Shown: positions 1-58,293 of the stretch, one piece after another
Numbering within the stretch: position 1 is the first letter of the stretch
How the letters are laid out: each line of letters starts with the position of its first letter
Virus record (IMG/VR): IMGVR_UViG_3300042268_000564
DNA length: 64,000 nt
Direction: 5' to 3' (one strand)
Source of the DNA: a virus
Lineage: Duplodnaviria; Caudoviricetes
Translations under genes and position numbers: made by a program
Notes under the pieces: generated by a model
Databases searched by the model: none
The model's input: only the letters and a program-made list of their open reading frames with translations
What the model was told of the DNA's origin: nothing

Positions 1-156
1 TGTGAGGGTGTTGGTGTAGCTGTCAAAGACGTTGAACAGGCTTTTCGGTTATTAAGTGACCATGTTAAGGGGAATGTTTTTACCTTTGACTCTTATCCTT
101 CTGTTCAAAAGGCTGAAATTCCTGCGCCTGACAAACGTGCGATTGAGATGATGTAA
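1..156 (+). CDS. 3' end of a hypothetical protein (partial, ends ...AIEMM*)
   Basis: Frame 1 is open from position 1 to TAA at 154-156; the next ATG is at 158. Confidence 0.6.
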   Translation, partial: CEGVGVAVKDVEQAFRLLSDHVKGNVFTFDSYPSVQKAEIPAPDKRAIEMM

Positions 157-157
157 G

Positions 158-382
158 ATGCCAATATCGCCATCAAGCGACCGAGCCACATTGTCCGAGA
201 TTCGAGTTAAGATATTAGCCGATTTATTCCAAAATGGATGTATTTCAAAACATTCATTGTTGGATTTTATGGGTTTTGAGGGTTTTAAAGGGATGAAAGC
301 AAACTGTTGTTTTATTGATGATTGCTTTGAGTTCGGCAATAATAGACGTTCTTTGGAAGAGCAAGTTTGGGATATGTTGTGA
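158..382 (+). CDS. hypothetical protein ending ...QVWDML*
   Basis: ORF in an overlapping-gene operon; stop overlaps the next GTG. Confidence 0.6.
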   Translation: MPISPSSDRATLSEIRVKILADLFQNGCISKHSLLDFMGFEGFKGMKANCCFIDDCFEFGNNRRSLEEQVWDML

Positions 383-678
383 CCAAAAATTTTGACATTG
401 ATATTGTTGGTGAATTGGATTCCTCTGCCAGAGCCGAAATGCAGAAAGATGCAGAGGATATTATTGCTGCAAGAAAAGAAGCAAAGCTCAGACAAGAATT
501 TCCAGACGAGTATGCGACTACTGGTTATGTTGATGTAGCAGCGCAAGGTTTAACATTTATATCATCTAGTGCAGTGCCTGCATTGCCGCAAGCGGGAATG
601 GCGTATTATGATAATAATACAGGCAATATCCATATTTTTGATGGGAAAGATTGGCAGACATTAGCCTCTACGCCATGA
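379..678 (+). CDS. hypothetical protein with N-terminal FDIDI motif and a tail-fibre-like C-terminal motif
   Basis: GTG start overlaps the upstream TGA; PALPQAGMAYYDNNTGNIHIFDGKDW resembles the G-x-x-YY-D...DG-x-x-W motif of phage fibre proteins. Confidence 0.6.
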   Translation: MTKNFDIDIVGELDSSARAEMQKDAEDIIAARKEAKLRQEFPDEYATTGYVDVAAQGLTFISSSAVPALPQAGMAYYDNNTGNIHIFDGKDWQTLASTP

Positions 679-893
679 AAAACTTTGATATCGAGTTGGC
701 AAAAGAGTGTAATGCTGCTGCCGACAAATTACTGAGAGAGCTTGCAGCAGACATAATTTTGAAAAAAAGTTTATTCCCAAGCTTGACAGAGATAAATCTT
801 GAAAGCGGTATTCCAGCTCCAGTGAATAATAAGTGGAAATTTGTAGATTGGGCAAGTCCTATAATTATCCATAGAGGGAATGTCGATGTTTGA
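675..893 (+). CDS. hypothetical protein (MKNFDIEL...)
   Basis: ATGA overlap with the upstream gene; N-terminus resembles its neighbours. Confidence 0.55.
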   Translation: MKNFDIELAKECNAAADKLLRELAADIILKKSLFPSLTEINLESGIPAPVNNKWKFVDWASPIIIHRGNVDV

Positions 894-1257
894 CATTGAT
901 TTCGTTAGAGAGAATGATAAAGAGTTGCGTGATGCAATAAGGGATGAAATGTCCAAGATTTCCAAGCCAAGTGAACCTGAATTTGAGGAAGTGAATTTTA
1001 AGGGGCATCACCCTATTGTATTTCTTAATGGCGTGATGCAGATAGAGGGAACTGATTATGAACCTGTAATGTCGCCGGATGGGACTTTTACGGGGATTAC
1101 TTTAACTACTTTCCCTGATGCTAATGATGAGCTTATAGTTAAATGGATTGATACAGACGACAAGGCTACCCCGCCCGTCGAGACGATGTTCTTTGCTTGT
1201 GTTCGAGGACGAGATATGAAAATTAATAGAATTCTATTTAAGGATTATAAAATATGA
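880..1257 (+). CDS. small beta-sandwich (virion/fibre-type) domain protein
   Basis: VFLNGVMQIEGTDY...ITLTTFPDANDELIV matches a common V-x-NG-x-x-Q-x-x-G-x-DY phage structural module. Confidence 0.55.
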   Translation: MSMFDIDFVRENDKELRDAIRDEMSKISKPSEPEFEEVNFKGHHPIVFLNGVMQIEGTDYEPVMSPDGTFTGITLTTFPDANDELIVKWIDTDDKATPPVETMFFACVRGRDMKINRILFKDYKI

Positions 1258-1610
1258 ACGTGCCAATAAAAATTAAACAAGATATCAAAGTTTTATATTT
1301 GCCAAAAGACAGGCTGCTGAACGGAGAATATGAAATAGAATTTTATCAAAATGGTCTATTGTTAAGTCTTGGCGAGGAATATAAATTAGTGCTGAGAGAC
1401 ACTAAACTTTACGCTGAATTTCTTTATCCTAATGATGGCGATGTGTTCAAAATGAGAATCCAGAGTCGTGTTATTGATAGTTCTAATTTTGGAGCTTATA
1501 TCTGTTGCTCGATGTTTTGTAAAAGATTTCATAACAAATCTAACTTGTTTTTTTCAGGGATTGTGTTAATAGATGATGAAATAGCTAATATTGAAATGGA
1601 CTTACTCTAA
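1254..1610 (+). CDS. probable paralog of 880-1257, ending EMDLL*
   Basis: FYQNGLLLSLGEEY...YPNDGDVFKM aligns by eye with the neighbour's motif. Confidence 0.5.
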   Translation: MNVPIKIKQDIKVLYLPKDRLLNGEYEIEFYQNGLLLSLGEEYKLVLRDTKLYAEFLYPNDGDVFKMRIQSRVIDSSNFGAYICCSMFCKRFHNKSNLFFSGIVLIDDEIANIEMDLL

Positions 1611-2878: not shown

Positions 2879-2924
2879 AATTTTGTTCACAAAAAATGAA
2901 CAAGCATTTTTTGTGAACAAAATT
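2879..2924. repeat. perfect 20-bp inverted repeat with 6-nt loop
   Basis: AATTTTGTTCACAAAAAATG-aacaag-CATTTTTTGTGAACAAAATT. Confidence 0.85.
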
Positions 2925-4348
2925 TAATCGAACATGTCTATTTCTTGCATTTGAATAGCAGGGAATTGACTATTGCTGGACAGGGGAACTTTTTCTTTTT
3001 TATGAACATTAGCCGTAGCGCAGGTTTCATTGGCTACAATCTCAAGTCTGGCTTTTGCAGTGCCGAATGATTCCTTTTCTTTCTCAATACCAATAAAATA
3101 TCTACCTTCCATCAAGCAGCCAATGCCTGTAGAGCCACTTCCCATAAATGGGTCTAATACAATGCCCCCAGTTGGCGTTTTTGTTAATTTAGCAAGGTAA
3201 GACATGAGGTTGCGATTTTTTACAGCAGGATGTTTGTTTTCTACTTGTCCATCGCACGTCCTATCTCGTTTTGAGGCTTTCGCACAATAATAGAATCTTG
3301 CAATGGAGCCTGAATCGCCATGTTGGTTTTGCGGGTTGCTTTTACCTCGCAAGAGGGTGGTGTTGCTGTCGCCATCATAAGCATTTACATCTTTCTTTGT
3401 TGCACCTGATTTGGTTTTGCCATATTTATTAAATTCTTGCATTACATCATCAGAGCCGTCGTGAATCACGTTACTGGGGAAACGACCATTCTCGCTATTT
3501 TTTATGATTTGTTCAGGAGGGAGTATGGGACTGACATTGAAATCAATATTTGCACTTTTGTTTGTTTTCACACTTTTAAAGCTGTGCCTTTTTTGTTCAT
3601 ATTTTTCTCTGTCAGATAGACCTATTGGCACTCTGCACTCCTCAATGTTTAAGCCAGCCACACCCCATTTAAGAGCATTATCAACATAACTGCCCTCATT
3701 AGGCTTCGTCATTACCAAAATTGGCTCAAAGGCAGGTTTAAGTGCGTGACTATGCCAACCATTCCATAGTTCGGCTTCAGGACTTGCTGGTTTTGTAATT
3801 TGGATAACATTGCCATGTTCATTGTAGTTATTAGGTCTATGTCCTTGTACCACATTTGCTTTGTTGACATTTGCCATTCCGCCAGACTTTGTAATGGTCT
3901 CAGATATAACCTCTCGTTCAAGCCCTTTTGTCTTGTCTATTTTTTTTGAAATGTTAAGCGATTTGGGAAATCCTTCTGAGTGAAGAAAGAATATACAATC
4001 CTTGAATGTAAAGCCTGCGAGCTGCATAGAGATTGCCATCAAGTCGAAGGTTCTAGTCCCAGCAAATACCAGCGCAGTACCTCCCGGCTTTAAAACACGA
4101 CAAACTTCTTTCCAGATAGCAGGAGGTGGAACGCTGCTGTCCCATTCTTTACTCATAAAACCTTTAGCCCCCACTTTGTCGGCAGAATGTTGTCCCAAAT
4201 CAAGCCATTCCTGTAACAAGCCAGCGAGGTCTTTTATCTCGCCTAGCCCGTATGGTGGGTCGGAAATTACAGTGTCGACAGAGTTGTCGTCCATTTTTTT
4301 AAGCTCGTCGTAACAATCGCCGTGGATGAGTTGGTATTTTTCCTGCAT
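2924..4348 (-). CDS. DNA methyltransferase, beta class, large insert; ends QEIDMFD*
   Basis: ISDPPY, HPAVK and DPFMGSGSTG motifs. Confidence 0.93.
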   Translation of the reverse strand: MQEKYQLIHGDCYDELKKMDDNSVDTVISDPPYGLGEIKDLAGLLQEWLDLGQHSADKVGAKGFMSKEWDSSVPPPAIWKEVCRVLKPGGTALVFAGTRTFDLMAISMQLAGFTFKDCIFFLHSEGFPKSLNISKKIDKTKGLEREVISETITKSGGMANVNKANVVQGHRPNNYNEHGNVIQITKPASPEAELWNGWHSHALKPAFEPILVMTKPNEGSYVDNALKWGVAGLNIEECRVPIGLSDREKYEQKRHSFKSVKTNKSANIDFNVSPILPPEQIIKNSENGRFPSNVIHDGSDDVMQEFNKYGKTKSGATKKDVNAYDGDSNTTLLRGKSNPQNQHGDSGSIARFYYCAKASKRDRTCDGQVENKHPAVKNRNLMSYLAKLTKTPTGGIVLDPFMGSGSTGIGCLMEGRYFIGIEKEKESFGTAKARLEIVANETCATANVHKKEKVPLSSNSQFPAIQMQEIDMFD

Positions 4349-4358
4349 AATTTTCCCA

Positions 4359-4756: not shown

Positions 4757-5386
4757 ATGATTTCAGTGATTACTAACTTCGGGTGTGATGAGGGATGTTC
4801 TTATTGCATAATGCGAGGACATCCTTTTGAACATGTAAAAACAACTGTTCAATCCACTGATTGGGAAGAATTAAAACGGGTTTTGCAAGGGCAGATAAGA
4901 ATTTCTGTTTCTGGTGGTGGCGACCCTTTATATCAACTTGAGCAAAATATGGACTGGTGGGAACATTTCTTTGACGTTGCACAAGGTCTTGAAATTGACT
5001 TACACACAGCAAAACTATCGCCAGTCAGCTTTGCAAGGAATTTCGCAAAGTATGTTTGGCATGTTAAAGACATAACAAAACCAATAGCGTTAGAATATAA
5101 ACAACTGGTTGACTATGGAATACCTGTAAGAATGGTAGCTGTGGGAGAAGAAAGATACACTGAGGATGATTATCTGCGTTTCGCAAGGCAAGTTGTGATG
5201 ATGGGGTTTCAATGTTCTTTCCGTGAATTGGTTGTTGATGGTGAAGCAAAGAATATCGCTTTGACAAGTTTTTTGGAGACAGAGCGTTGGTGGAAATTTG
5301 TTCGGCAAGCTGATTATAATACGTATTTCATGCCCGATAATAATCTTTATGATAAGTTCTTGATAGGAGAAACCTCTCATGCTTAA
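4757..5386 (+). CDS. radical SAM protein (small, stand-alone)
   Basis: CDEGCSYC (CX3CX2C) and SVSGGGDPL motifs. Confidence 0.85.
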   Translation: MISVITNFGCDEGCSYCIMRGHPFEHVKTTVQSTDWEELKRVLQGQIRISVSGGGDPLYQLEQNMDWWEHFFDVAQGLEIDLHTAKLSPVSFARNFAKYVWHVKDITKPIALEYKQLVDYGIPVRMVAVGEERYTEDDYLRFARQVVMMGFQCSFRELVVDGEAKNIALTSFLETERWWKFVRQADYNTYFMPDNNLYDKFLIGETSHA

Positions 5387-7433
5387 ATTTAAAAATGCAT
5401 TTTATTTGCCTTCTGGACGAATTTTTCTGCTCGAAACAGGTGACGGTTATCCCATTGAATGTACTGAAATGAGAGACGTGATGGTTGATAGCAAGCAACA
5501 TGATGCAGTAAGAACCAGTATCGACCCGAAAGTTATTTGGCAGCATTTGCGCCCGTATGACAAGAAATGGCTTCTCACTGTGAGCACTCAGAAAGGTTGT
5601 CCGCATAATTGTCAATTTTGTTTGGTACCCGGTTCGCCAATATTGATGCAAAACTTTAATTCAATACCGATAGAAGAAGTGAAATTAAATGATATTGTTT
5701 GGGTTCCAACCCCGTCTAATGAGTTCTGCAAATATCCTGCACAATATGCAACAAAAAAATATGTTAGCCTGAGCAAGGTAACTGGTTTAATTAAACGGGT
5801 TTATAGTGGAGAAGTCTTTTCTATCAAAACTAAGTCGGGTTTATGTATAGAATGGATAACACAAGAACACCCTGTTTATGTGTTACGAAAAGGGCGTTTT
5901 AAAGCAACTCCAGCAAATGAGCTTAGTGTTGGTGACACAGTTCTTTCTTTTAAGTCTGCAAGTCTTTCCCCTACGAATATTAATTGGGAAAGGGGATGGC
6001 TTGCTGGCATGGCGGATGGTGATATGTATAGAGGTTTTTATACAAATACTATGATGCCAAGAATGTCATTAATGCAAAATAATATTGAAGTTGTGGCTTT
6101 TGCAAAAAGCATTCTAGACAAATATGGGATTAATACGAGTGCAATAAACCCGGTAAAAAACAAGGGAAACGGGGGCTATATAGTTACATGGGGTGGCAAA
6201 GCTGTTGTTGAATTTGATAATTTTATTAATGATGGCGAACAAGATGAGGATTATATGAGAGGGTATATCGCAGGTTTTTGGGACGCTGAAGGGGCTAACT
6301 TGTCTAATGGCGATTGTGTTAGAGCTTATAATAAAAATATAGCTTTTTTAAACAAAGCAGAAAGCTATTGTCATCGACTTGGATATATTTCTGCACATGT
6401 AGTGCATTCTTCTGGCTGTAGCTACATACAAACAGGAATTCGAAAATTTGATTTTATTACTAAATTTAGACCACAGCATCCAAAATCTTTTTTTTGGCGC
6501 AATCAAAACAAGACAAGATGGGCGGCTGACACTTATGGAGTGGATACGATTATAGAAATTCAAAAAAAGCAGTATTGTGGAGTCGTTCACAATATAGAAA
6601 CTGAAATGCATTCATACTTTACTGGCGGGGTTGCAAACCATAATTGTGACGTCGCGCCGCTCCCATTCGAGGGGAATTTAACGAGGAACGAAATTCTTGC
6701 TCAGGTGCAATTTTTGATAAGAACGACACCGTATGCAGTTGGCAGCCAAAAGGTTAAGATTGGTTTCGCTCGAATGGGCGAGCCTGCCCACAACCTGCAA
6801 AACGTATTGGATGCCATACGAGAACTTTTGCCGCCATATGAAAAAGGGAAAACAGTGGAAATTGTTGGCGGGACAATGCCATTCTGTAATTTTAAGTGGC
6901 TCCCATGCTTTAATTCTATTCTGCCACGAAAAACTATAGAGGGATTAAGCGGTGAAGATGTTCTGAAGCGTGTTATTGAGTTTAAAGAGACTGTCTGTCA
7001 TGGTTTTTTGCATTTACAGATAAGTTGTAATTCCACAGATGAGACCAAGCGCAAAGAATTGTTTGGTGGGGCGGATGTTCTTTCCTTGCCAGAAATAGTT
7101 GAAATAGTCAACAAAACTGAAATAACCGACAGAACTATTACTTTGAATTTTATTGTGATGAAGGGGGTAGAGGTCGATGTTCAGAAGCTTGTAAAAATGG
7201 GCTTGAATCCCAACAAGTTCGCAGTGAAACTTATTCCGTTGAATCAGACTAACAATAGCAGTGAGAATGGTCTTGAAACATTTGCCAATTACGACAACTA
7301 TGATGATTTGAAAAAGTTGGCAGATGAATTTAAAAGCCATAATATCCCTGTAGTTTTTGATGCAATTGCCAAGTGCGAAGAAGCTGGACTCTGCTGTGGG
7401 CAGTTGGCACATATTTTTATAAAAAATGCTTGA
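5379..7433 (+). CDS. RlmN/Cfr-like radical SAM methyltransferase containing an intein
   Basis: Extein motifs VSTQKGCPHNCQF|C, RMGEPAHN, KLIPLN, CCGQL match the RlmN/Cfr pattern. Confidence 0.85.
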   Translation: MLKFKNAFYLPSGRIFLLETGDGYPIECTEMRDVMVDSKQHDAVRTSIDPKVIWQHLRPYDKKWLLTVSTQKGCPHNCQFCLVPGSPILMQNFNSIPIEEVKLNDIVWVPTPSNEFCKYPAQYATKKYVSLSKVTGLIKRVYSGEVFSIKTKSGLCIEWITQEHPVYVLRKGRFKATPANELSVGDTVLSFKSASLSPTNINWERGWLAGMADGDMYRGFYTNTMMPRMSLMQNNIEVVAFAKSILDKYGINTSAINPVKNKGNGGYIVTWGGKAVVEFDNFINDGEQDEDYMRGYIAGFWDAEGANLSNGDCVRAYNKNIAFLNKAESYCHRLGYISAHVVHSSGCSYIQTGIRKFDFITKFRPQHPKSFFWRNQNKTRWAADTYGVDTIIEIQKKQYCGVVHNIETEMHSYFTGGVANHNCDVAPLPFEGNLTRNEILAQVQFLIRTTPYAVGSQKVKIGFARMGEPAHNLQNVLDAIRELLPPYEKGKTVEIVGGTMPFCNFKWLPCFNSILPRKTIEGLSGEDVLKRVIEFKETVCHGFLHLQISCNSTDETKRKELFGGADVLSLPEIVEIVNKTEITDRTITLNFIVMKGVEVDVQKLVKMGLNPNKFAVKLIPLNQTNNSSENGLETFANYDNYDDLKKLADEFKSHNIPVVFDAIAKCEEAGLCCGQLAHIFIKNA
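5619..6644 (+). mobile_element. intein with LAGLIDADG homing endonuclease (342 aa)
   Basis: Starts CLVPGSPILM; block B ITQEHP; WLAGMADGD and YIAGFWDAEG; ends VHNIETEMHSYFTGGVANHN followed by Cys+1. Confidence 0.93.
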
Positions 7434-22323: not shown

Positions 22324-22351
22324 TTGACAAGAATAAACGAGTTTATATAAT
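22324..22351 (+). promoter_or_regulatory. promoter, 16-bp spacer, leaderless start
   Basis: TTGACA-N16-TATAAT-N6-ATG(22358). Confidence 0.8.
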
Positions 22352-22357
22352 AGATAT

Positions 22358-38455: not shown

Positions 38456-38489
38456 TTGACATTTTGCTATCGCTCTTTATAATAACTGT

Positions 38490-44465: not shown

Positions 44466-44495
44466 CAATGCTCGCCAAACTTTTATAATAAAAAC

Positions 44496-45026
44496 ATGAA
44501 AGTGAAAGAAATCAAAATTCAAGACTATACTGGCGAGGCAATAATGCCTGTTGAAAAAAAGAATCTTGGCGCAAAGCAACGAGCTATTATTCTGCATTTG
44601 GAAAACTGTGAAGCCTGCCCTTATGTAAAGACAGAAAGAACAAAAGGAGCTGGTTATGCCATTGATTACTTTTGCACAAGAATGGACGGAAAGCCAGTTA
44701 GTGTGTATATGGAAATTCCTAGTGATATGAAGCCAGTTCCTGACTGGTGCCCGATAGCTCTTAACACCACTGAAGATACAATGTTAGCCCTTAATGCGAA
44801 AGAAGCGCAGCAATTGGCTGAAGCCGTGCTTAAAATGGATTGCCATAACGAACATCTATATACAGGTGAACGTAGCTGTAAGCTATGTGGTGCAAAAGAA
44901 GATGAAAAGCGAGAGATAAAACATTTGCCTACTTGTGCCATTATGACAGCCCACAAAATGGTTCATGATGTCTCTTTGCGCTGCGACAAGACCAAGCTTG
45001 ATGATAAAGTGATTGATATGTTATGA
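44496..45026 (+). CDS. double zinc-finger protein ending VIDML* (leaderless)
   Basis: CEACPY..C..PDWCP plus CKLCG..HLPTC. Confidence 0.7.
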   Translation: MKVKEIKIQDYTGEAIMPVEKKNLGAKQRAIILHLENCEACPYVKTERTKGAGYAIDYFCTRMDGKPVSVYMEIPSDMKPVPDWCPIALNTTEDTMLALNAKEAQQLAEAVLKMDCHNEHLYTGERSCKLCGAKEDEKREIKHLPTCAIMTAHKMVHDVSLRCDKTKLDDKVIDML

Positions 45027-45556
45027 GAACGAAAACAATTGTCATGCTGTCGGTTATTGATAAATGCGTGGAGTGCCCTTATTCATATTGTCCGCAGCAA
45101 CTTTTTGGTGATGATGCCAAGCAAGAAGGCTTTCCTCTATATTGTCGATGTACAAAAAATCTGCTTGATGGGCAAAATGCACGATTGGTAGGGGCTTATA
45201 CCCCGCAACATCCCGTAGAACAAATAAAAGTCCCTGAATGGTGTGATGCAAGTCTTGATATTGACGTTCTTAACAAATTCGCAGAACCGATTGATAAAAT
45301 TGCGATTGAAATGTCCGAATCCTTACTGCGACGAGAAAACGAGTTGTTAGAACAAGCTGTAGCAAGAACGAAAACAAGCGAGAAGCTTTATGGCTTTAAG
45401 TGCCTGATTTGTGGTAAATTTGAGCCTGAAGATGGTTTTGACATATTTAAACATAAGGATACATGTCCTATTGTTGCTGCCAGAGCACTTTTAAAAAGAC
45501 GGGATAGCCAGCAAAGAATTGTTGACGCTTTCCAGATGCATATAGATTTATTGTAG
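45023..45556 (+). CDS. double zinc-finger paralog ending HIDLL*
   Basis: CVECPY..C..PEWC plus CLICG..HKDTCPI. Confidence 0.7.
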   Translation: MRTKTIVMLSVIDKCVECPYSYCPQQLFGDDAKQEGFPLYCRCTKNLLDGQNARLVGAYTPQHPVEQIKVPEWCDASLDIDVLNKFAEPIDKIAIEMSESLLRRENELLEQAVARTKTSEKLYGFKCLICGKFEPEDGFDIFKHKDTCPIVAARALLKRRDSQQRIVDAFQMHIDLL

Positions 45557-45800
45557 GAGTAATGATGAAAAAGCTTTTTAACAAAAAGGATATTCTTAAA
45601 TTCCAGAAACGTGAACGAACTGCAATTGTGGAAATCGACCTCGAACATGATATGCTGCAATTTTTTGAAGAAAAAGCTGCCGAGATGGCTGAGATGGCAG
45701 AGGTAGACCCTGCTACTATTTCTGCTGGTGACGCAGTGGCTTATATGCTTACCCAAATGTATGAGCAAGGTATGTTTAAGGAATTGGAAGAAAGAATCAA

Positions 45801-46328
45801 ATGAACAGCTTTCACAGGGTAATGGTGCCTAAGATTATGTCTACATTGGCACAATATCAGCCGATGTCTTTCAATGATTTATCAAATAAGATAAGCTCTG
45901 ATTTGTCAGTGCCAAAAAGATATGAATTGCTCAGTCTTGTAAATAGAATGGTCGAGTCCGATTTATTGCTAATGAAGGGTGGCATGTTATCATTGCCAAT
46001 GGATGTAGCCGAATCATTGCCGCAGAAACAGCCTGTAAAAACAAACCTTGAAAACAAAACAAAACAAGAATTACTTGAACTGGTGTCAACTTTAGCGCAA
46101 ATTATTCTCGACAATCGTGGCGAACCTTGTGAAATCCAAAACGATGAAGGCAACTATGTTCCAGCCGAGAAATGTTTATTTTGTAAGCGAGTGATAGTGA
46201 CGGCTTTAAATAAGGGTGAGAAAGCGAGTTGTCATGCGCCGAATTGTCCTGTGACTTTTGCAAGGACATTGATGGATACAAGTGGCGAGCTTTCAAAAGG
46301 GGAAAAGAAGGTGGTGGACATGTTATGA
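45801..46328 (+). CDS. winged-helix plus C2HC zinc-finger protein ending VVDML*
   Basis: N-terminal wHTH-like region; CLFC..HAPNCPV. Confidence 0.65.
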   Translation: MNSFHRVMVPKIMSTLAQYQPMSFNDLSNKISSDLSVPKRYELLSLVNRMVESDLLLMKGGMLSLPMDVAESLPQKQPVKTNLENKTKQELLELVSTLAQIILDNRGEPCEIQNDEGNYVPAEKCLFCKRVIVTALNKGEKASCHAPNCPVTFARTLMDTSGELSKGEKKVVDML

Positions 46329-46747
46329 GTAAAGATTCAGATTTTTGGCTATTTTGTTTGAAAGCTTTACTTTTTTTTGTTTTTTGTGGCGTTGTAGTCA
46401 GTGTTTTACGTATATTAGGGATTTTGCCACCTCTTCCAATGTTACAGTCCAGCACCGCCAGTAATCCGCAGCCAATGCAAACCGCACCTATACAGCCTTA
46501 TGAACATGTTTATGATATTGTAATCAAAGAAAAATTTATTGTATGCACTGACAAAATTAATTATGGCTTCAGGTATTGGAACAAAACAAACCAAGAGCAC
46601 TACATGTCATGGACAACAGAACTAGAGAATAGCTGTTTTCTTAAATTTGATGTGGGAGAGCCGCTTATTTTCTACGAAAAATTTGACGGCACAAATTACG
46701 ATAATAAAGTAGTAAAGGCTTCAGAATGGAAGGCAGAACAAAATTAA
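46325..46747 (+). CDS. membrane-anchored hypothetical protein
   Basis: N-terminal TM segment. Confidence 0.55.
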   Translation: MSKDSDFWLFCLKALLFFVFCGVVVSVLRILGILPPLPMLQSSTASNPQPMQTAPIQPYEHVYDIVIKEKFIVCTDKINYGFRYWNKTNQEHYMSWTTELENSCFLKFDVGEPLIFYEKFDGTNYDNKVVKASEWKAEQN

Positions 46748-46928
46748 TCAACAGACATCAGATGATAGTTCTCTACGAGAGCACCTTGTAAAATTTGCTC
46801 GGCTTGTGATTGGTTGACGGGAATAGCGTCAATTATCTTTTCAACAGTAGGTTTTGTTAAAAAGACTTTTTCAATGAGACCTTTATGATAGATAATCCAA
46901 ATTTTGTTCATATTCATATAATAACTTT

Positions 46929-47375
46929 ATGGCGAATCATTTAATTTTAAAAATAGAAACTTGTCTCGATTGCCCAAGGGCTGTAGGTGCCCCTGATGGT
47001 GCTTGGACATGCACTGACGTTAACAAGCTCATCGGCAGAACGCACGAGCTTAAAGGGCAAAAAACTTTGCCTGCATTTTGCCCTCTCACTGTTCGTTTTA
47101 TAGGCACAAAGGAAACAATAGATGCCATCCGAACAACAGCTCTACTTAAAAATAAATTAGAACGTTTAAGCACCTTTGTCAAAGCTTTTGATTGTTTTGT
47201 AAGAATTACAGGAGGCAAGGTAGTTTGTGATGTGTGCAAAGCCTCAGCCAAAACTGCAAGTGCAATAAAACATGCAGAAATTTGTCCAATATCAATTGCG
47301 AATGGCGTTCTTGCCGACAAAGAAGCTGCCACATTGGAAGACGCTCTGATAGAAAAGATAGTGGAGATGTTGTAA
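46929..47375 (+). CDS. double zinc-finger paralog ending IVEML*
   Basis: CLDCP..C..PAFCPL plus CDVC..HAEICPI. Confidence 0.7.
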   Translation: MANHLILKIETCLDCPRAVGAPDGAWTCTDVNKLIGRTHELKGQKTLPAFCPLTVRFIGTKETIDAIRTTALLKNKLERLSTFVKAFDCFVRITGGKVVCDVCKASAKTASAIKHAEICPISIANGVLADKEAATLEDALIEKIVEML

Positions 47376-50300
47376 ATCAGAGGCTTCAAAATAGCCTGAT
47401 TAAAGGATTGTTTCTTTTTAAGAAAAATCCTGATTTGAGAGTTTTCTAAAAAAAACTCTGATGCAATCTTATAAACCTTAAAAAAAGCGGGACTAAATAT
47501 TTCAAGTTGACAATGTTTGCTATTTGTCTATAATAACCTTAGAAAGAGGTAAAATTATGGACATCATGTGGTTGATGGTTACTTTATCGTCAATGGTTCA
47601 GGTAGTATGCTTCTCTATGGCAATATACTACGCCGTAAAACTGTATGAAACAGCGAAAAGCGTATGGAAGGCACTGTAAATGAATAAAGCTAGTGTAGCA
47701 CACCTGATAAAAGAGCTTGATGGACTGTCGATTAATGGAAAAATATTTTTCTTTGCTTTGGGCTGGTCGATATATTCTAATCCTAAATTTATTATATTGC
47801 CACCCAGCATGGAGACAAACGCAAGCGAAATAATAAATCATATCAGCCATGACATGGTTAGATTGCTTTCTGTTAAGCTGAAGTGGCTTTACAGGCAATA
47901 TAAGAATGGTTTTAAACAATGGTGGGAAATCATGGAGGCTGAAAGCAAAATAAGCCCCAGAGAATACTGGCGACGCAGATACTTCAACTGGCTCCTTTTG
48001 TCTGACCAGATGATGGACGCACGTCCCTTCAGAGAAGGGTTCATGCTTAGAGCTTTTTTGGAACGACGGGATTGTAATGCAAGTTGCGAGATAAGCGTTC
48101 ATGATTCTACATTTGAAGAAATTAATACGGCAGATGTTCGTATAGCGATTACACCACTTACGATTGTTATGAGAGAATTGATTTATGATTTAAGTTTCCC
48201 TTTGGAAAAAGAAAATTTCCCAGGAGTAGATTTGCTATGAAAACTATCAATTTATGCGGTGAAGCAAATTGGAAGTGCTACGTGGCAGCTTGCCATGCAG
48301 CTTATGCAATGGTGCCTAGAGAGTTGCGATTAAAGCTCAAAAACGATGGCGAAGCAGGTGGCACAACTGGCAATCTGTATGACAAGGCATTTAGAGCAAT
48401 GAAGCCTGATGATATCCTTCATTACCTTGCCATAATAAATAAACAAGAAAAAGAATGGTGCAGATTATGGGGACTGACTCTACCGTTTTCAGAGCCATAC
48501 TGGTTCAAAAATGCCTTTATAAACTGGTCGTTTATGGCACCGGACGTAGTAAACATATTTGCTTCAATTAAAACCATCCAAGAAGCTTATATTTTCTTGA
48601 AAAATCACACCTACGAAGAGTTAACAACAGCTCTCGATGGATATGCTAATGGCGAACCACAAACAAAGCACAAACTACTCATGATGCTTATGGATTGCCT
48701 CTTATGTTCGCCTGAGCACAAGACAAGGGCATTACAAGGAAATATGTCGCCGAATTTTTTTGAGTTGGAAAGAGTTCATCTTTTGATTTGACATTGTCCA
48801 TGTAACTTTTACAATAAACTTATGGATATAGAGTTAATAAAAAATCATCCAGAGAAATATCGTTTAATTGCGATGGCTTATGCTATTGTCGATAGATTCT
48901 TGCTGGAATTAGATGAGCTTTTTGATGGACTGGCAAGGTATGCTTTGCCAAAAAAAGTTTTGTCTTATCTCATGTCAAAAGATGGGCAGCAAGCTGTAAA
49001 TGATAGATATAACTTTGTTGTCACTGAACGTTCAAAAATGCTACAGATTACAAGCGAAGATGATTATTTGATTTGGATATTAGCTGGCAAGCCTCAATAT
49101 GGCGAGGAAATTGACATTACCCTATTGCATACGAGCTTTGTGGCTTACACTGTGCAAGCTTTATTGATTCACGAAAGACGAGAAGAATATCATGGATACA
49201 TCTAATCCTTGCTCAGAGGTGTTTCTTGATACGGAGCCGACATTTTCAACAGCTTTTCATGTTTCGGTTGCGAATGTTTCCGATGCAGTTATGTTCATAT
49301 TCGACAATGATTTGCTCGACATCGCCACAGCAGTAGCCTTATTTTATGCCGCTGAAGATGTAATTAATTGGGATAAAAGACGAGATATTGACAAGATTCT
49401 CTCTATCATGGACGAAACAAACAAAGACTTCCAAGAATGGCGCAATGACGGCATGACAGCCTTAGAGGCAACATATTATGCCGTATTTAAGGAATATCGA
49501 ATTGTAAGCATGTTGCCACTTGATTACATCAAAGCTATACTGGATTTGAACCATCGTCATGCAGCATTTGGACTAGAATCAGCCTTCCCGAAATATGTTT
49601 TCCTGCTCAATATGCGTGTGCAAGGCAGGGTTGAAAACCCCGACACAATGGACTATGTAGACATAGAATTAAACGAACAGCTTGAACCTGACTTCCTGAT
49701 TACACTCAAGAAATACTGCCTGTCCTTCAACCAGAGGTTTAATGATATCCTATGACAGCAATAAAATATTATGGAACGCCTATCGTTACGGATACGTGGC
49801 ATGAATTGCAGAAAATGATGGCTGCAAAATATAGTTTTCCCGGTGGCAGTCGCTTGTATTTATCTGGCGACACGTTTAACGGACATAGGAGCGTATCTAT
49901 GCGTTATGCGAGCTATATTCATGACCCTCAGCATTACAAAGAAGAGAATAACCGTGTTCTTTGGCGTAATGGCGATATAATTGTCATGGAAGATAAAAAA
50001 ACAGCCATCCCGCCGGAGCTTTTCATTATTATTGTGGCTATGGCACGCAGGATAGAGCAAGACAATCGTTTCCTTAATACAAATAATTACCAAGACCTCT
50101 TATTGCTCGATACATTGCAACCCACAAAAGAAGAGCTTGACGTTACTCTTGTGATGCAAAATATAATTGAAACTACATTCGAGAAACATAAAACCGCGAC
50201 ACTAGTCAACCCCGTAAGCATGGCTGCCTTGTTGCAACACAGGCTGAATTATGAGAAATGGAAAGCTGTGCAAAAAGAGCAAGGAGACTGGTTATGACAA

Positions 50301-53145
50301 TCCCTTGCATGGGGGGAAGCATTGAAAAAGTTAGCAATGCTCACTTATATCTAAAAATTATCACATCACCTGAAATTATAACTTTTGTCTCTTCAAAAGA
50401 ATGGAACGACATCATAGAATCAATTTGGGCTTGGAAGCTGCAACAAATCATTACCGCAGAATCATTAATGCTTGAACAGCACGGGCGATTCCTTGACCCG
50501 AACAAAATGTCTGATATCGAATTTGTGAAAAATACCCAAGCTTTCCATGATAATTTCAAGCATATAAATATAGGAATGCACGCTATCTACATTATTGATA
50601 AGCTCATTGTTCATTTTAAATATTTGTTGATGCATTGGAATAGATTTAAAAAAGCCTATGATGAGATTCAACGTCTACAAAAAGAAAGCCCTTATTTGAT
50701 ATGATTCATCCATCCGTCTTTGGACTCAAGCATGACATTGACTGCATTTTCAACATTAATGCGCAAAGTGGATGTCCATTGCAAGTCGTAGATAGCGTTA
50801 ATACTCTGAAACATTTAGCGGAGGTGGGGATTCTCCCTGTGGCATATGCTGTGTTTAGGTTTCTTGAGGCTTGTAGGCGGTTTCCAATGCAGGACGATTA
50901 TGATGGCATTAAACTTTTTCTTTCTAAGAATAGTGATATGTCGATTGTTCACGATGCTACCAGATTATTGTGCAGGGCATTCCCCGCAGATGCTACAGCT
51001 TTTGAGAAATATCTTGCATGCATTAATTTAAAAGCTCAGGTGCAATGCGATGCGAAATTGCAGGTAGAGTTGTCTTATTTCACAGAGATTTTTCATGCTG
51101 TAGGTAGAGATGATTATGACTTGCTTAAAGATACATTACAACTCGACTACGAAGCCACAGATACTGTGATTAAATTTATCATAGAGAACAATTGCTTGCC
51201 GCAGGTAATATTCCTGCTCAGGAAACATAAGATTGACAAAAATACCAGCGACAAACTTGCACAAATACAGACAGAGATAAACAAACTTAGAAAAATGACC
51301 ACAGCCTCAGCCTATATATTTACAGCATATATAGTGCTATTCAACAACAAATTCGCCATCAAAAAAGATAAGTTACAGCAAGAAATAGAAGCAACCTCTA
51401 ATCTCATGCACGATAAAATGCTCATAAACGTCCGTAACGCTGGTTTTATTAATCTCCTATACAAAAAGATTACCAATACCAATAGAACGCCAGCAGACCC
51501 CCAAAAAAGAGAAGTAACCGAACCAATCTCACCAACCAATATCATAAATCTTAAATCTTTTAACTTGACAACTTGCCACGAGCTTTTATAATAAAAGCAC
51601 AGGAGGGCAAGGAATATGTTAATCATGAAGGTGCAAGAGTTGATACCTTTGGCTTACCAGATAGAGAAGGAAAAGATACTGCCAGTAATACACGCTTGCT
51701 GGAAGACTGGTAAGGGGCTGGGTAATATCAACAGAACTGAAGTGGTTGATACGCCAACGGAAGCGATTGAAATACTGGACTTTATTATGTTCGCCAGCAA
51801 AGATTCCAAATGGTATAGCCATCTTTCTGACAAAACTGAAACAGTAAGGGTATACCCCGATTCTATCTATAAATATCTCAGACATCGTAAGGTGCTTACC
51901 AAAAAACTTACCCTTACAAAAGCTTTCATTAAAGCTTGTAAAGAGTGCCAGCCAATTGATGAATATCATGGGATGCTGTAATGGAATATTTGGTCAGACC
52001 TTCTATACATGGCGTTAGAGCCGATATAAAAGCCCTTAAAGAGGGTCATGTCGATACTGCCGACATTATCTACATGAGACGACGAAGCGCAGCAGCACGG
52101 CTTGGATTAATCCCAACCATAAACCTTGTAGCCAATTTCATTATGTATCATGATTATTTTCCCGCCCTGCAAATGGTGCCGCACCTTTGTTCAGGGTTCT
52201 ACCAGAACAATGATAGAGCCCCTGTAGCCTCTTTAATTTATCATCTCCAATTTAAGGACGTGCCGCCAGAACCACAAGACAAAATCGTAATCTCATTCTC
52301 TTACTTAAAGCTTTTAAAAGCCGCACAAGAATTTTTTGAAAAGATTAAATGGAAATTTACCAATGAAACATGTTCTAATTTATTGGAAATAGCACTCGGC
52401 GAGAATGTGCCGTTCAGGCACGAGAAAGTAAAAATGCACTCTGCTCTTGAACATAGCGGGTTACTTGCACTTGCGCAAGCATTCGCAAGCTTTATCTACA
52501 AGTTTCAAAGGCTTCCTAACCATAACCACATAGCCGATGTTGAAGAGCTGGATATTACACCTCTAAAAAGCTACGAACAAGAATATGCCACTTTCCTTGT
52601 TACTGCCGCAGACAAAATAATCTATTACGCAAATGATGAGCTTGCCGGATATCTACAAAGTTTATACAACGAAATTACCCTCCTCAAAGAAATGAAGAGT
52701 AAACTAAGAAAACAAGAGGCAGGCTTGCTATGAGACGATATGCAATAAAAGCCTTAACGCCACTTACAAAACAAATCCTTGAACTGGACATTCTTACACC
52801 TATTTTATGTTGTTGCCAATTTAAGACGATGCCATTACAGATAACAAAATTAGACATGATAAAAACGCAGGAGGTAATAAGCCGTTTTTTTTACAGGCAA
52901 ACACCAGAAGCATTATTATTTGACATTGCAAGAGTTTTGTATATAAACGATGATTATCATGTTGAACTTGCGAGAGTAGATGAAGATATAGAATTGACTA
53001 AGGAATTTATTTATACTCATCGCAGAATTTTATTGCATGATTTGCTAATGTTTTGTAATGAACCACCAGCTAAACCCTTGCTCTTGCCAGAAGTAATCCA
53101 AGATTGCCTTGTTTTGACACGAACCGAAAGATACCACGAACTGTT

Positions 53146-53619
53146 ATGATATTAACCAGAGAAGAAATAATCCCCATCTTACAAGGCAAATCTGAATACG
53201 ACTATTCCTATAACATAAACATTATGAAACTCTACCAAACTGCCAGCAAAATCAATAGGACAAAATATCTTAAACAAGTATTCAAAGCTCAAGTAGAATC
53301 AATACTATGGAACAACAGATTCCTCGACGCAAATAACTATATCGACATAGAACTCATCAAAAAACAAAACGACAGCCCCATCCCAACACTCGACTTTCAA
53401 AAACGTTACGCTACCCTATTCTTCAGACATAACGTATATTCACGAACATTCAACCTAATACAGGCGTTACTTGCTTTGATTAATTTTGGCGTTGAAATAA
53501 CTGCTCATAAGGGTGAAATCTGCACTTATGTAATGCCTCAGATATCTTTGGATTTTTATAAGGAGCAAGTGAAGCTTTACAGGGCTTTTAAACCGATGAA
53601 GGTAATAGAGGTGCTATAG
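53146..53619 (+). CDS. paralog-array member
   Basis: NRFLDANNYIDIELI; close paralog of 53619-54119 (PQI.L.FY.EQ..LYRAFKP). Confidence 0.75.
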   Translation: MILTREEIIPILQGKSEYDYSYNINIMKLYQTASKINRTKYLKQVFKAQVESILWNNRFLDANNYIDIELIKKQNDSPIPTLDFQKRYATLFFRHNVYSRTFNLIQALLALINFGVEITAHKGEICTYVMPQISLDFYKEQVKLYRAFKPMKVIEVL

Positions 53620-54119
53620 TGCTGACAGAACTGACAGAAAAAGAAATAGTTGCCATATTGCGTGGATATGGTAAGGCAGATTATCTTGGTATTTTTGATG
53701 CAAATAAGTTGCGAGCTACCGCAACCAAACTCAATAATACCAAAATCCTGAAAAAAATTTTTAAAGCACAATTACAAGCAATCCTTGAATATAACAGGTT
53801 CCTTAATGCTAATAATTATACAGACATAGCCCTGATAGACGCTCAAGATGAAGCGCCCATAGAAAAAATAGCCAGCAGCAATAGAACTCATCGCATTGCT
53901 TTAAAAGGGTCAGCACAAAGCTATAATACCACTCAATTTCTACTCGGTCTTATCCATCGAGATTTAACAATAGTTCACGACCCGGCGTTTTCATTATATA
54001 GTGTACCCCCTGAAATTCAGGCAGTTGTGATTCCCCAAATTCCTCTTAGTTTCTATCACGAACAGCTAAGATTGTATAGGGCTTTTAAACCTCATGAACC
54101 AAAACATATCATTCTTTGA
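53619..54119 (+). CDS. paralog-array member
   Basis: NRFLNANNYTDIALI. Confidence 0.75.
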   Translation: MLTELTEKEIVAILRGYGKADYLGIFDANKLRATATKLNNTKILKKIFKAQLQAILEYNRFLNANNYTDIALIDAQDEAPIEKIASSNRTHRIALKGSAQSYNTTQFLLGLIHRDLTIVHDPAFSLYSVPPEIQAVVIPQIPLSFYHEQLRLYRAFKPHEPKHIIL

Positions 54120-55606
54120 CCCAAAACCCTACTTGATAGGACATAAAGACAATCTCATTAGTGAACTGCTCACGTCGCGTCCAGTTTATGGCGAAACAGT
54201 TTCAATAGTGAATAATATGACAGCAATTGTTCAACATAACTTGCAATCCATTGTTGCGGCAGTAGCCTATACCATCTACGCCAAACATAGACTTCCCGAC
54301 TACGACAATCTGCAAGGTGACCATAAAATTATTTTCAATGAAGCCGAAAAATTACTTGTAGACCTTACCAACCTTTATAATAGAGCTGAAACCTTTATGG
54401 AAGGTAATTCAGTACAATATGTGACCTTAAAACTAATCAGAGCCATCACACTCGACCACAACGAATTCAGACGAATCAAGGTGATGAGACAATACAATAG
54501 ACAACTACCCGAAACCGCAATAGACATCAACTACTTCATCAACCTTAAAGCCATCTTAACACAACAAGATTTTATTACGCCTGAGATTATGATTTGACAA
54601 TAGTCACCTCTGCTTTATAATGAGATTATGGGACAAAATGCAGATTACAAATCTTTTGCCAAAAAGCTAATGGATGACAAGCTTAAAGAAAAGAAAGAGC
54701 TTGTAAAGGTTGCTATTAAGATTCAAAATCTGCCACAAGAACAGCACTTCATTGCTTTGGCTTATGCTTACTTGGCAGTGAATACCATAAGCCCATACAA
54801 AATTAAACCAGAGCCATTAGAATTAGACATATTAAGCCAATTCACCCAAGAGAATGTTATAACAGCAGCAATACACTTACAAAGCATTGAAGGAAAATGG
54901 GTTGTTATCCTGCCTGCATGGCAAAGTGTAGAAAAAATGAAGGAATTCGTTCACAGCTCTTATATGAGCTGGTTATTCTTTTCGAGACGACCGCAATACT
55001 GGCAAATACTCAGAAAAGACCTCATCCTAAGCTCTCTAATGCTGGGTGAAGAACAACTTGTTGATTTTTATAGTAAGCCGTTCAAAGAAATCAATGGATA
55101 CCACCTGAGAGATTACGAACCATCAAATGTTGCTCTATTCCTCAAAAAGATTTACGACGAATATCCCAATTTCTATGACTGGAATAAACTACTTAAACCA
55201 AGAACCAAAGAAATCCAACTCATGGACAATCTGTTATGACTTTTAAATTTAATTTTGCCCCCTTTATCAGTTCAAAAACAGCCGAGGAGGCTATTAAACA
55301 CTTGCGACCTTATTCCAGAATTGTTGTGGCACTTGCACAAAAACTGCTCACAACTAGCAAAAAGGATTTGTTGACGCTTGACGATATGGAATTCATATAC
55401 AAGACCGACGACCTCCCTTTTCAAGAACTTATGGCTGATGTAGAGAATAACATTATTCATGGCATACCAATATCCTTATCCCATGACACTACCAAAGACC
55501 TTATAATCAGAATCTTTGGCAATTATCCCAAAAATATCAAACACGATTATTTTGTTAAACTACAACAAGCCTATGACAATTACCTGACAACAAAAGAGAT
55601 TATGCT

Positions 55607-56224
55607 GTGATTACTAGAGCCGAAATACTCAGACAACTAGCTGATTCCTGTGAAAAAGAAATAAAACTATGCAAAGAACAATACGAAGATATCATATTCC
55701 CCACACACATAAGCAGAGCAGACGCCTTGAGTAAATTTTCTGAACCATATTTCGGAAAAATCCAAGACTACCTTCCATATATCGGCAACCTCAACCCCGA
55801 AAAGCACATAAAAGAACTGGAACCATACAAAAAAGAAATTATTGCTACCGCTCATAAACTATACTGCACAGTAGATTTTCTTAATCCAAACAAAGCTAAA
55901 GACTTGGATTTAATAGCAAAATATCACGTACTCAGAACAAGCTTATTCGATAACACAGCAAAGCACCTCTCAATGGATTCAACCGACCCTCAAAACCCTT
56001 TCTATAATTACACTGCTTTCCAAAACACCGAAGCAAGAACTACTGTAGTAATGACAATCATCGCAGCAACAATAACCAATAAAAGAGCTTATAATAAGGT
56101 GCCCACAACAATCAAAAATGAAAACATATTCATTGAACTCAACTACTTCAAAAAATTACACAAAATATACAAACAATACGAAACACTTAAACAAGTAAAC
56201 CAACAACCACCAGAATTGATTTGA
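55607..56224 (+). CDS. paralog-array member ending QPPELI*
   Basis: IIATAHKL...FLNPNKAKDLDLI. Confidence 0.7.
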   Translation: MITRAEILRQLADSCEKEIKLCKEQYEDIIFPTHISRADALSKFSEPYFGKIQDYLPYIGNLNPEKHIKELEPYKKEIIATAHKLYCTVDFLNPNKAKDLDLIAKYHVLRTSLFDNTAKHLSMDSTDPQNPFYNYTAFQNTEARTTVVMTIIAATITNKRAYNKVPTTIKNENIFIELNYFKKLHKIYKQYETLKQVNQQPPELI

Positions 56225-56265
56225 CAATCTAACAACTCGATTTATAATAAGATTAAGGTGCTATT

Positions 56266-56784
56266 ATGAATGTTATAATTCCAAGCAATGATAAGGATGC
56301 AAGGCATTGGATTGAAGAGTTTTCACGGGGATACCCCATTTTGTTTGGAAGTTATGCGGCGTATGTCAAGATGAAAAAAGAGGTATATAGCAAGGCATTA
56401 AATAAATACGGGAATATCGTAAAACTCACCGCAATCAAGCTTGCCACAAATCAAAGATTCCTCGACCCGAAAAAGCCAGCCGACTTGGAATTATTGGCAA
56501 GCTTCACAGAAGAGAAACCAATCACGCCGCACATAGAAGATGTAATCCGTTGCGCAAATACTTATCGACAAGGACTATTGGAGAATATAAACAATAGAAT
56601 GCAAGGAATCATCATTAATATCATTGCTGCCTCAATCGCAGGACTTACAATAGATGAAAATAATCTGCCAGAGAAACTGGACAAGCCTATCATACCACTC
56701 AAATATTACACAGAACTTGACAAAGAATTGAATAAATACATCAACCTCAAAAATGAATTCCGTAAACCACCAGAATTAATATGA
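56266..56784 (+). CDS. paralog-array member ending KPPELI*
   Basis: TAIKL...RFLDPKKPADLELL. Confidence 0.7.
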   Translation: MNVIIPSNDKDARHWIEEFSRGYPILFGSYAAYVKMKKEVYSKALNKYGNIVKLTAIKLATNQRFLDPKKPADLELLASFTEEKPITPHIEDVIRCANTYRQGLLENINNRMQGIIINIIAASIAGLTIDENNLPEKLDKPIIPLKYYTELDKELNKYINLKNEFRKPPELI

Positions 56785-57265
56785 ATACAGAACAACATAT
56801 CTACTACTCATCAAACGGAAAGCATAGAGACATCAGAAGCCTGAGCGACACAAACAAAACAATAGACCTTGCATGTGAAACAAAACAATTGCTACAAGCT
56901 GCCGAAATATTACAGCCCTACGCCAAAGTAATCGTTGCCACTGCAATTAAAAATCAAAGTTATCCATAACTGGTTAGAACCAATGAAAGATATCGAACTT
57001 ATCCAAGACGCCAATAAAGAACTATTCGAAATCGCCGTCGCTGAAATCCACGAAACAAAAAGCCTAAACCACATAATACCAAGAGAAGATACAGACATAA
57101 ACAAACGCCATAATCAAAAGAATCATACTCAGAATAGCAATCACCATCAACACAAAAAAGAAAAATCCTTTCAGATTCTATATCGAACCAAAATACTTCG
57201 CCGAACTCCAAGCAATATTCAACAATAATTCCAATAACCTCAATGAACTCACAAATCTATTATGA
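56781..57265 (+). pseudogene. paralog-array member broken by two +1 frameshifts
   Basis: Frame A ...VIVATAIK; frame B HNWLEPMKDIELI; frame C IIKRII...FYIEPKYF...NELTNLL*. Confidence 0.7.
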
Positions 57266-57726
57266 AACTTGAAGCCCAAATCAACTACGGATACGAAACC
57301 AAAACAACAGCCATCAAAGCACTACTCGGTAATAACCATAACCACACTAAAGTCTTAACACCATTCAAAGACAGATTAAGCTTAACTCTTAAAGAACTAC
57401 GCCCTTGTGCTCGGATAATTGTTGCTATTGCACTTAAGCTTCAAAACTCTAATGATTGGCTCGACCCGATAAAAGATAAAGAACTCATCGACAACGCCGA
57501 TGAAAATATTTATACTCTAGTCGAAACCCAAATAAATAGATGCCCCTCTGAATTATTCCTCATCCCATGCGAAGGAAACACAACCACACATATCATCCAA
57601 AGAATCATAGCCGCAACAGGAAACAAAAAAACAAACGTCTTTTTCATAAGACCCGATTTCTTTAAATTAATGCTCATACAATACCTCACCATCAATAACA
57701 CAAAACTAATCGATAAATTAATTTGA
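57262..57726 (+). CDS. paralog-array member
   Basis: IIVAIALKL...WLDPIKDKELI. Confidence 0.7.
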   Translation: MKLEAQINYGYETKTTAIKALLGNNHNHTKVLTPFKDRLSLTLKELRPCARIIVAIALKLQNSNDWLDPIKDKELIDNADENIYTLVETQINRCPSELFLIPCEGNTTTHIIQRIIAATGNKKTNVFFIRPDFFKLMLIQYLTINNTKLIDKLI

Positions 57727-57756
57727 CAATCTCACCCCTTTGTTCATAATAAGGTT

Positions 57757-58293
57757 ATGAAAAAGACTCTTATTGATAGTTTTGTCAGATATTCTCAGGA
57801 GGGGAAAGAGATTGACCTGTTCAGGTTAGTTGACCCTACGAGAAAGACATTAAATGGGAAGCTTATACAAGCCAAAGATGTAACAATTTTGACAGGTAAG
57901 AACTTTTTGTTAGCACAGGCTCATAAACTTCAAGAATACGCAAATGTGATAGTTGCCACTGCAACAAAACTCAGATTCTTTGAAGAATGGCTCGAACCCG
58001 ACAGAGATAAAAATTACCTCGAAGCAGAGGATAATGTGCCAGCTTACCAGAGAATAATTACCGACATCGGAAATAGAGAAAATGTTATATTCCTTATAAA
58101 GGGAACAAGCATAACCTCTATTATTCACAGAATATTATTCCACACGGCATTGTCAGAAAAAGACTTTCTTACCAATACAGATGAAGAGAGAATATTAATA
58201 AACCCAATATTATTTGACTACATACAAAATAAAAAAATCATACACTACCAAAGCCAAGAAGCCCTCAGACTCGAAGAAAAGAACCTATTATGA
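57757..58293 (+). CDS. paralog-array member (leaderless)
   Basis: VIVATATKL...WLEPDRD; promoter TTGACA-N16-CATAAT-N6-ATG. Confidence 0.7.
   Translation: MKKTLIDSFVRYSQEGKEIDLFRLVDPTRKTLNGKLIQAKDVTILTGKNFLLAQAHKLQEYANVIVATATKLRFFEEWLEPDRDKNYLEAEDNVPAYQRIITDIGNRENVIFLIKGTSITSIIHRILFHTALSEKDFLTNTDEERILINPILFDYIQNKKIIHYQSQEALRLEEKNLL

Follow-up and report, generated by a model that had tools for sequence, protein, structure and literature searches.

The described systems nearest to the one reported here are C-terminal degrons and clamp-binding peptides. In bacteriophage T4 the clamp motifs are LDFLL-COOH in gp33, LDFLY-E in gp55 and LDFLF-D in the ligase (PMC7892883 Suppl. Table 2); these epitopes are located at the extreme C-terminus, on linkers that diverge in sequence and vary in length, and one can be exchanged for another (PMC2988020). 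In bacteria, the C-terminal motif of clamp partners is QL(S/D)LF (PMC9690074). The ClpXP C-degrons, ssrA and C-motif-1, are very short, portable, non-polar signals which are recognized in the cytoplasm at a free C-terminus (PMC12723719). Here we analyse a 64,000-nucleotide stretch of a virus assigned to Caudoviricetes (Duplodnaviria; IMG/VR record IMGVR_UViG_3300042268_000564), referred to below as the window, in which many small proteins end in a short peptide of acidic and hydrophobic residues. These endings constitute a C-terminal peptide tag that is portable and under selection as protein sequence, with the core [D/E, less often G/N]-hydrophobic (L/M)-[L/I]-stop, and the tag fits the definition of neither system fully. 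In the literature searched, no description of a proteome-wide C-terminal tag of such kind in phages was found.

The phage tails are likewise very short, non-polar at the free end and portable, they would be read in the cytoplasm, and this phage encodes a Clp protease. With C-motif-1 the tails have the terminal position in common; unlike C-motif-1, which typically finishes in the small non-polar L-A-A, they end in bulky L, M or I after an acid. Similarity to the T4 motif lies in an acidic-hydrophobic C-terminal epitope behind a divergent, variable-length linker, and in the coexistence of a form that ends at hydrophobic residues with a second form followed by an acid, represented here by D-M-F-[DE] endings on other proteins of the phage. 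However, the phage core is one residue shorter than L-D-F-L-hydrophobic and is devoid of Phe, and it is found on dozens of proteins of unassigned function, whereas three or four replication and transcription proteins carry the motif in T4. As to the bacterial motif, which is often C-terminal, tail positions −3 to −1 are similar to its positions 3–5 (S/D, L, F/L), with a small or acidic residue followed by two hydrophobic ones; in contrast, the tails lack the Gln of position 1, show only weak hydrophobicity at position 2 and close with Leu or Ile where the motif has Phe.

Local enrichment and shape of the endings

A preliminary description of the window had listed some 30 small proteins with related C-termini, and all 30 tails were found at the respective stop codons. 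For counting, a loose tail was defined as hydrophobic-[LI]-stop and a strict tail as [DE]-hydrophobic-[LIM]-stop; the gene set comprised 126 genes from a codon-usage caller, and the main block was taken to be the 29 genes ending in 44.4–58.4 kb. Loose tails terminate 23 of the 29 block genes, 6 of the 88 genes in 1–44.4 kb and none of the nine beyond 58.4 kb. The hydrophobic-[LI] dipeptide occurs internally at a rate of 5.2–5.3%, so that the excess in the block corresponds to P of about 1e-24, and outside the block there is no excess over background. The loose-tail phenomenon is real but strongly local. Strict tails are found on 12/29 block genes and extend farther: a walk along the contigs that carry the window proteins yielded 33 kb more of the same phage upstream of the window (~97 kb examined in total), and in the window and this upstream sequence 8 of 138 genes outside the block bear a strict tail, against 1.18 expected (P = 3e-5). 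A further ending of the strict type, EELM, turned up when the walk was continued upstream. As a control, 247 distinct proteins were collected from loci around distant rIIB relatives (37–44% identity) in other huge phages. None of them (0/247) has a strict tail, and loose tails are found on 14 (5.7%), which is the background rate.

The preliminary description had also maintained that ATGA or TTGACA overlaps at the stop codon can bias the last codon towards L or I but do not explain the penultimate residue, and had proposed an enrichment test stratified by overlap. When this test was run, the enrichment was retained in each class of stop, and neither overlaps nor codon composition explain the tails. 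Among ATGA stops, loose tails are carried by 11/12 genes in the block and by 2/25 in the rest of the window (Fisher 1e-6); the corresponding figures are 5/6 and 0/4 for TTGAC stops (Fisher 0.048) and 1/1 and 0/8 for TAATG stops (Fisher 0.11). For stops belonging to none of the three classes they are 6/10 and 4/60 (Fisher 3e-4), and four of these six tailed block genes have no overlapping start of any kind. The probability that a codon specifies L or I is 0.158 for NNA codons and 0.168 for NNT codons, compared to 0.158 for all codons; overlaps thus do not bias the last residue towards L or I. Furthermore, eight different codons are used at the last and 11 at the penultimate residue of the block tails, which indicates that amino acids rather than a nucleotide word are constrained. 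Of the 29 block genes, 27 have a hydrophobic penultimate residue.

In the 23 block carriers position −1 is occupied by L (16) or I (7), position −2 by L (12), M (6) and then I, Y, W and V, and position −3 by D (6), E (6), G (3), I (3) and N (2). Ala appears in neither the −1 nor the −2 tally. Position −4 is His in six block carriers, and the ending [YC]-H-[GE]-hydrophobic-[LI] is found on four proteins with no detectable similarity to each other; roughly half of the strict tails have a hydrophobic residue at position −4. At position −5 V, Y, P, I, E, K and other residues were tallied, Gln not being listed. Every tail is directly followed by the stop codon, leaving a free extreme C-terminus.

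None of the annotated enzymes of the window is tailed. Endings of the form hydrophobic-D-M-F-[DE] are present on methylases and a Mom-like protein (2924–4348 on the minus strand, 24915–25673 and 28314–32720). F is never the last residue of a hydrophobic-[LI] tail, and the D-M-F tails never have L in place of F. The suggestion of the preliminary description that the tails represent a second C-terminal address is borne out in this respect, the class being discrete from the tails of the DNA-modification enzymes. A membrane-like segment, defined as a 19-residue stretch scoring >= 1.6 on the Kyte-Doolittle scale, was detected in 0/30 carriers and in 10/96 other proteins, and a cytoplasmic reader would therefore fit. 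Judged from their sequences, the carriers appear to be small, soluble, fast-evolving accessory proteins.

Carriers of the tail and their relationships

In order to find out which carriers are related irrespective of the tail, the last six residues were removed and iterative profile searches were performed with leave-one-out. All carriers are encoded on the plus strand. Ten block genes, together with a pseudogene, form one tandem family, referred to as family B (E = 1e-13 to 7e-4), with a conserved central RFLDPN-like motif. Its intact members are located at 49752–50297 (181 aa, ending QGDWL), 50294–50704 (136 aa, SPYLI), 53146–53619 (157 aa, VIEVL, stop TAG), 53619–54119 (166 aa, KHIIL), 54094–54597 (167 aa, PEIMI, the stop lying within a TTGACA −35 box), 55236–55610 (124 aa, KEIML), 55607–56224 (205 aa, PPELI), 56266–56784 (172 aa, PPELI), 57262–57726 (154 aa, IDKLI) and 57757–58293 (178 aa, EKNLL, leaderless start). 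The tail is kept in all ten at 15–28% identity, and it is preceded by a linker of variable length which is rich in Pro, Gly and Gln and often contains Pro-Pro or Gly. The pseudogene (56781–57265) is a paralogue with two frameshifts that runs through frames 0, 1 and 2, the last of which ends in LTNLL and overlaps the next ATG. The gene calls for it are identical in two other assemblies, and therefore either the pseudogene is real or recoding would be needed. The 250-aa protein at 51981–52733 (EAGLL) is only a borderline member of the family.

Four tails at 44.5–47.4 kb belong to a second family, A, with an invariant C-x2-C...H-x3-C (CCHC) zinc knuckle near the C-terminus: 44496–45026 (176 aa, VIDML), 45023–45556 (177 aa, HIDLL, stop TAG, no overlap), 45801–46328 (175 aa, VVDML) and 46929–47375 (148 aa, IVEML, stop TAA, followed by 300 nt without genes). 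A C-x2-CP motif is also found near the N-terminus in this family (44241–47375). The short member of family A at 44241–44465 has no tail, and neither does 58290–58532, a doubtful fragment of family B; it follows that the tail is dispensable for the fold.

The remaining block carriers are singletons: 47680–48240 (186 aa, GVDLL), 48237–48791 (184 aa, VHLLI, the stop within a TTGACA −35 box), 48822–49205 (127 aa, YHGYI, TAA), 49192–49755 (187 aa, FNDIL), 50701–51591 (296 aa, CHELL, TAA), 51616–51981 (121 aa, YHGML, TAA), 52730–53149 (139 aa, YHELL) and 54628–55239 (203 aa, MDNLL, leaderless start). Six listed tails lie outside the block. Four of them match the strict form: the 80-aa gene whose 3' part occupies 1–156 (AIEMM, TAA; the start lies upstream of the window and the complete gene is L006 8661–8903), and the ORFans at 158–382 (74 aa, VWDML, TGA without ATGA overlap), 1254–1610 (118 aa, EMDLL, TAA) and 39254–39508 (84 aa, PPEIL). 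The other two have loose tails only and are singly indistinguishable from chance, namely an ORFan at 38090–38455 with an uncertain start (38090 or 38183), which ends in ESGLL with stop TAA directly before a TTGACA promoter, and a 255-aa ORFan at 38490–39257 with a leaderless start (KTCML).

Profile-profile comparison with hhalign, performed on trimmed sequences, revealed no link among the two families and nine other proteins of the block (best probability <5%), the sole exception being that of family A with 44241–44465. When paralogues are collapsed, 11 of about 15 block lineages are tailed, for which our own arithmetic gives about 1e-11 at a background of 5%. The earlier statement that the tail spans several unrelated families consequently needs to be divided. 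It does not hold within 47.7–58.3 kb for the ten genes and pseudogene of family B, nor at 44.5–47.4 kb for the four tails of family A. At least 11 lineages share no detectable similarity after trimming, although they may still be branches of one superfamily that has diverged extremely.

Block proteins had no matches in Pfam or PHROGs. Searches among 5.8 billion proteins for relatives of 51981–52733 retrieved only the protein itself, and no relatives of 51981–52733, 14892–16118 or the trigger factor of the phage were found in IMG/VR. An exhaustive search of 1.84 billion representatives with the family B profile returned only the 11 query proteins. The family A profile retrieved fragments from the same phage and two proteins that share only the N-terminal zinc domain, both tail-less. 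By these searches, the carriers appear to be restricted to this phage.

Promoters of the TTGACA-N16-18-TATAAT type, with 11–12 of 12 positions matched, are found at 26 sites in the window, compared to 3.6 in shuffled sequences, and ten of the 26 fall in the block region, on its plus strand. At seven sites with N16/17 spacers the −10 box ends exactly 6 nt before an ATG (22324–22358, 28064–28099 on the minus strand, 38456–38490, 41592–41626, 48788–48822, 54594–54628 and 57723–57757), which points to leaderless mRNAs. The TGA of an upstream gene lies within the next TTGACA −35 box at stops 893, 7433, 40373, 44156, 44465, 48791, 54597, 56224 and 57726, and the gap to the next start is thereby fixed at about 30 nt. 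The same promoters serve the DNA-modification genes, so the tag is not a mere mark of every gene with a host-type promoter.

Candidate readers of the tail

Taken together, the endings are probably a genuine tag recognized by a shared partner. This would be a single partner and may be a protease, and the carriers may be made early. As to the mechanism, we favour a C-terminal degradation tag, with a rough probability of 0.3, because a phage ClpP was verified 28 kb upstream. The free hydrophobic end would be recognized by an AAA+ unfoldase, encoded by phage or host, which would deliver the tagged protein to a Clp-type protease, for which the phage has its own ClpP; dozens of accessory proteins would in this way acquire a common, limited lifetime. 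The tag comprises just two or three residues and is strictly terminal, as in the recognition of the ssrA tag by ClpX (PMC12723719), and it is borne by cytoplasmic accessory proteins. The ClpP gene (L034 5956–6651; PF00574, E = 2.5e-79) is situated about 28.5 kb upstream of the window and, with the catalytic Ser, His and Asp in place, its product is canonical. At the C-terminus it is extended by about 40 residues rich in Lys.

Several points weigh against degradation. The ClpP gene, 28 kb away, is circumstantial evidence, and neither ClpX, ClpA nor another unfoldase was seen in the ~97 kb. We know of no degron that is read as [DE]-hydrophobic-Leu. The ssrA-type degrons end in small Ala-Ala (PMC12723719). 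Tail positions −3 to −1 match positions 3–5 of the clamp motif at least as well. Finally, the searches with families A and B and with 51981–52733 left the carriers without relatives outside the phage, and conservation across phages is accordingly not available as support.

Docking to the sliding clamp is a close rival, given T4 gp33 LDFLL-COOH and bacterial QL[SD]LF, and we consider it somewhat less probable than degradation. The tail would be a C-terminal clamp-binding peptide that tethers the accessory proteins to the phage or host clamp on DNA, and would represent another dialect of the D-M-F-[DE] tail found on the phage methylases. The T4 motifs are likewise acidic-hydrophobic, C-terminal and borne on divergent linkers, bacterial partners have C-terminal QL(S/D)LF, and the tails have D, E, G or N at −3, L or M at −2 and L at −1. 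Clamp-type endings of Escherichia coli such as QADMF, QLGLF and QLNLF resemble the tails at positions −3 to −1. A DnaX-type clamp loader is encoded by the phage (L010 12495–13919), and the protein at 39505–39813 ends in DDIIE, which looks intermediate between the D-M-F-[DE] and [DE]-hydrophobic-Leu classes. On the other hand, Gln is not among the residues listed at −5, only about half of the strict tails are hydrophobic at −4, and many family B tails (KNLL, DKLI, PYLI, HIIL) have no acid in register. The two tail classes are moreover discrete, with no terminal Phe in the one and no Leu in the D-M-F form, suggesting two readers. Dozens of clamp clients of unassigned function would be unprecedented, and no clamp gene was found in the window and the sequence upstream of it. 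A 213-aa gene beside the clamp loader was considered as a clamp and dropped, having no relatives, no match in the PDB and a helical Atlas model. Another neighbour of the clamp loader encodes a 139-aa protein (L010 14233–14652) whose ending, ADDDVF, recalls the acidic tip of SSB proteins, and a 96-aa protein (L012 2499–2789) ends in DDIDDDY; these may be further C-terminal docking tips.

Three other explanations are each unlikely. The tail could be a packaging address by which proteins are loaded into the prohead and injected with the DNA. Internal proteins of T-even phages are unrelated and fast-evolving, their sole common feature being an N-terminal capsid-targeting sequence, and the cargo-loading peptides of encapsulins offer a possible parallel for a C-terminal packaging tag. 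The block resembles the T-even case in that a short terminal peptide is the only feature common to small proteins encoded side by side, here tandem fast-diverging paralogues and ORFans, and packaging would also suit soluble carriers and a tag specific to this phage lineage. However, the capsid-targeting sequence is removed by the prohead protease, and its carriers are expressed together with head genes, whereas the genes here stand behind consensus host-type TTGACA-N16-TATAAT promoters amid DNA-modification genes and not amid head genes; and the head-targeting signals known in phages are N-terminal, unlike the present tag.

No better placed is binding of the free acidic-hydrophobic end by another cytoplasmic hub of phage or host, such as a PDZ-like, TPR-like or chaperone protein. 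Everything that argues for a real peptide tag argues for such a hub as well, and the motif of no known reader is fully matched; nevertheless, no candidate protein was found. Periplasmic tail-specific or PDZ proteases of the Prc and DegS type are unlikely readers, because signal-like or membrane-like segments are predicted in 0/30 carriers.

There may also be no reader at all, the block being one expanded helical superfamily in which the ending is an inherited helix C-cap (Gly/Asn/Asp) followed by a hydrophobic staple. Half of the block consists of two paralogue families, the genes are alike in size and arranged in tandem, and Gly, Asn and Asp, as found at −3, are common helix-capping residues. 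An AlphaFold2 model of a family A protein, of low confidence (pLDDT 56), is helical nearly to the C-terminus; in the equally tentative model of family B protein 55607–56224 (pLDDT 58) the tail is a coil after the last helix (residues 178–199). Foldseek retrieved no match in the PDB at E <= 0.001. The inherited end is difficult to reconcile with the lack of detectable similarity between families and singletons after trimming, with a linker that varies in length and contains Pro-Pro, and with tail-less family members; in addition, the strict tail is found on scattered small proteins 30–60 kb away and the control phages show only the background rate. It, too, has a low probability.

Lastly, it is very improbable that the tails arise as an artefact from ATGA/TTGACA overlaps, codon composition or translational coupling, even though 18/29 block genes stop in an ATGA or TTGAC overlap, since NNA and NNT codons specify L or I at the overall rate, overlapped genes outside the block are mostly tail-free, and 6/10 block genes outside the overlap classes are tailed, with the penultimate residue hydrophobic throughout nearly the entire block.

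Genomic setting and meaning of the tag

The window has a G+C content of ~39% and no tRNA genes, and it matched no GenBank phage, either by DNA or by protein. Its proteins were traced to a contig of 398,427 bp and to near-identical contigs that derive from several wastewater runs. Among its genes are those for N6/N4 DNA methylases, a Mom-like protein, radical-SAM proteins, one of them interrupted by an intein, and TnpB-like proteins; the 33 kb upstream encode rIIA-like and rIIB-like proteins, a HIRAN protein, a trigger factor, the DnaX-type clamp loader, a DinG-like helicase and ClpP. Between 41981 and 60561 the called 3' ends match the independent gene calls of the collection, and in other assemblies the block is 100% identical, without polymorphism.

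Beyond the block, a hypervariable 150-bp patch at 60346–60493 differs at 28 places (18 substitutions and 10 indels) from two other assemblies; it holds all differences, the remaining 18.4 kb being identical, and both contigs end at 60561. The patch lies inside a minus-strand gene (60136–60747) for a 203-aa protein to which no function was assigned, and no template-like repeat of it is present in the window. The intein, with a LAGLIDADG domain, is located in a 684-aa radical-SAM-like protein (5379–7433), just downstream of a second radical-SAM gene (4757–5386). Two to three genes are TnpB/Cas12f-like (23234–24292, 26716–27918 on the minus strand, and 62483–64000, the last with a weak match under the Pfam cut-off). 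Small ORFs at 27915–28064 (minus strand) and 62418–62543 flank two of these genes, and their 85% identity over 39 residues suggests copies of one IS-like element.

It is possible, and we propose it only tentatively, that the phage uses two discrete C-terminal codes across its proteome, hydrophobic-D-M-F-[DE] for DNA-modification enzymes and [DE]-hydrophobic-Leu for some 50 accessory proteins specific to its lineage, each with its own hub. If so, the former code could be read by the sliding clamp, for example, and the latter by the prohead or by a Clp protease under phage direction, and a new accessory gene would become functional by gaining three terminal codons. A three-residue ending borne by roughly a tenth of the proteins of a giant phage would provide a handle on phage dark matter: dozens of fast-evolving proteins that lack annotation would be grouped in one functional class, the tag predicts that they have a single reader, and a simple rule would emerge by which new accessory genes become tied to timed destruction, to tethering on DNA or to loading into the virion.

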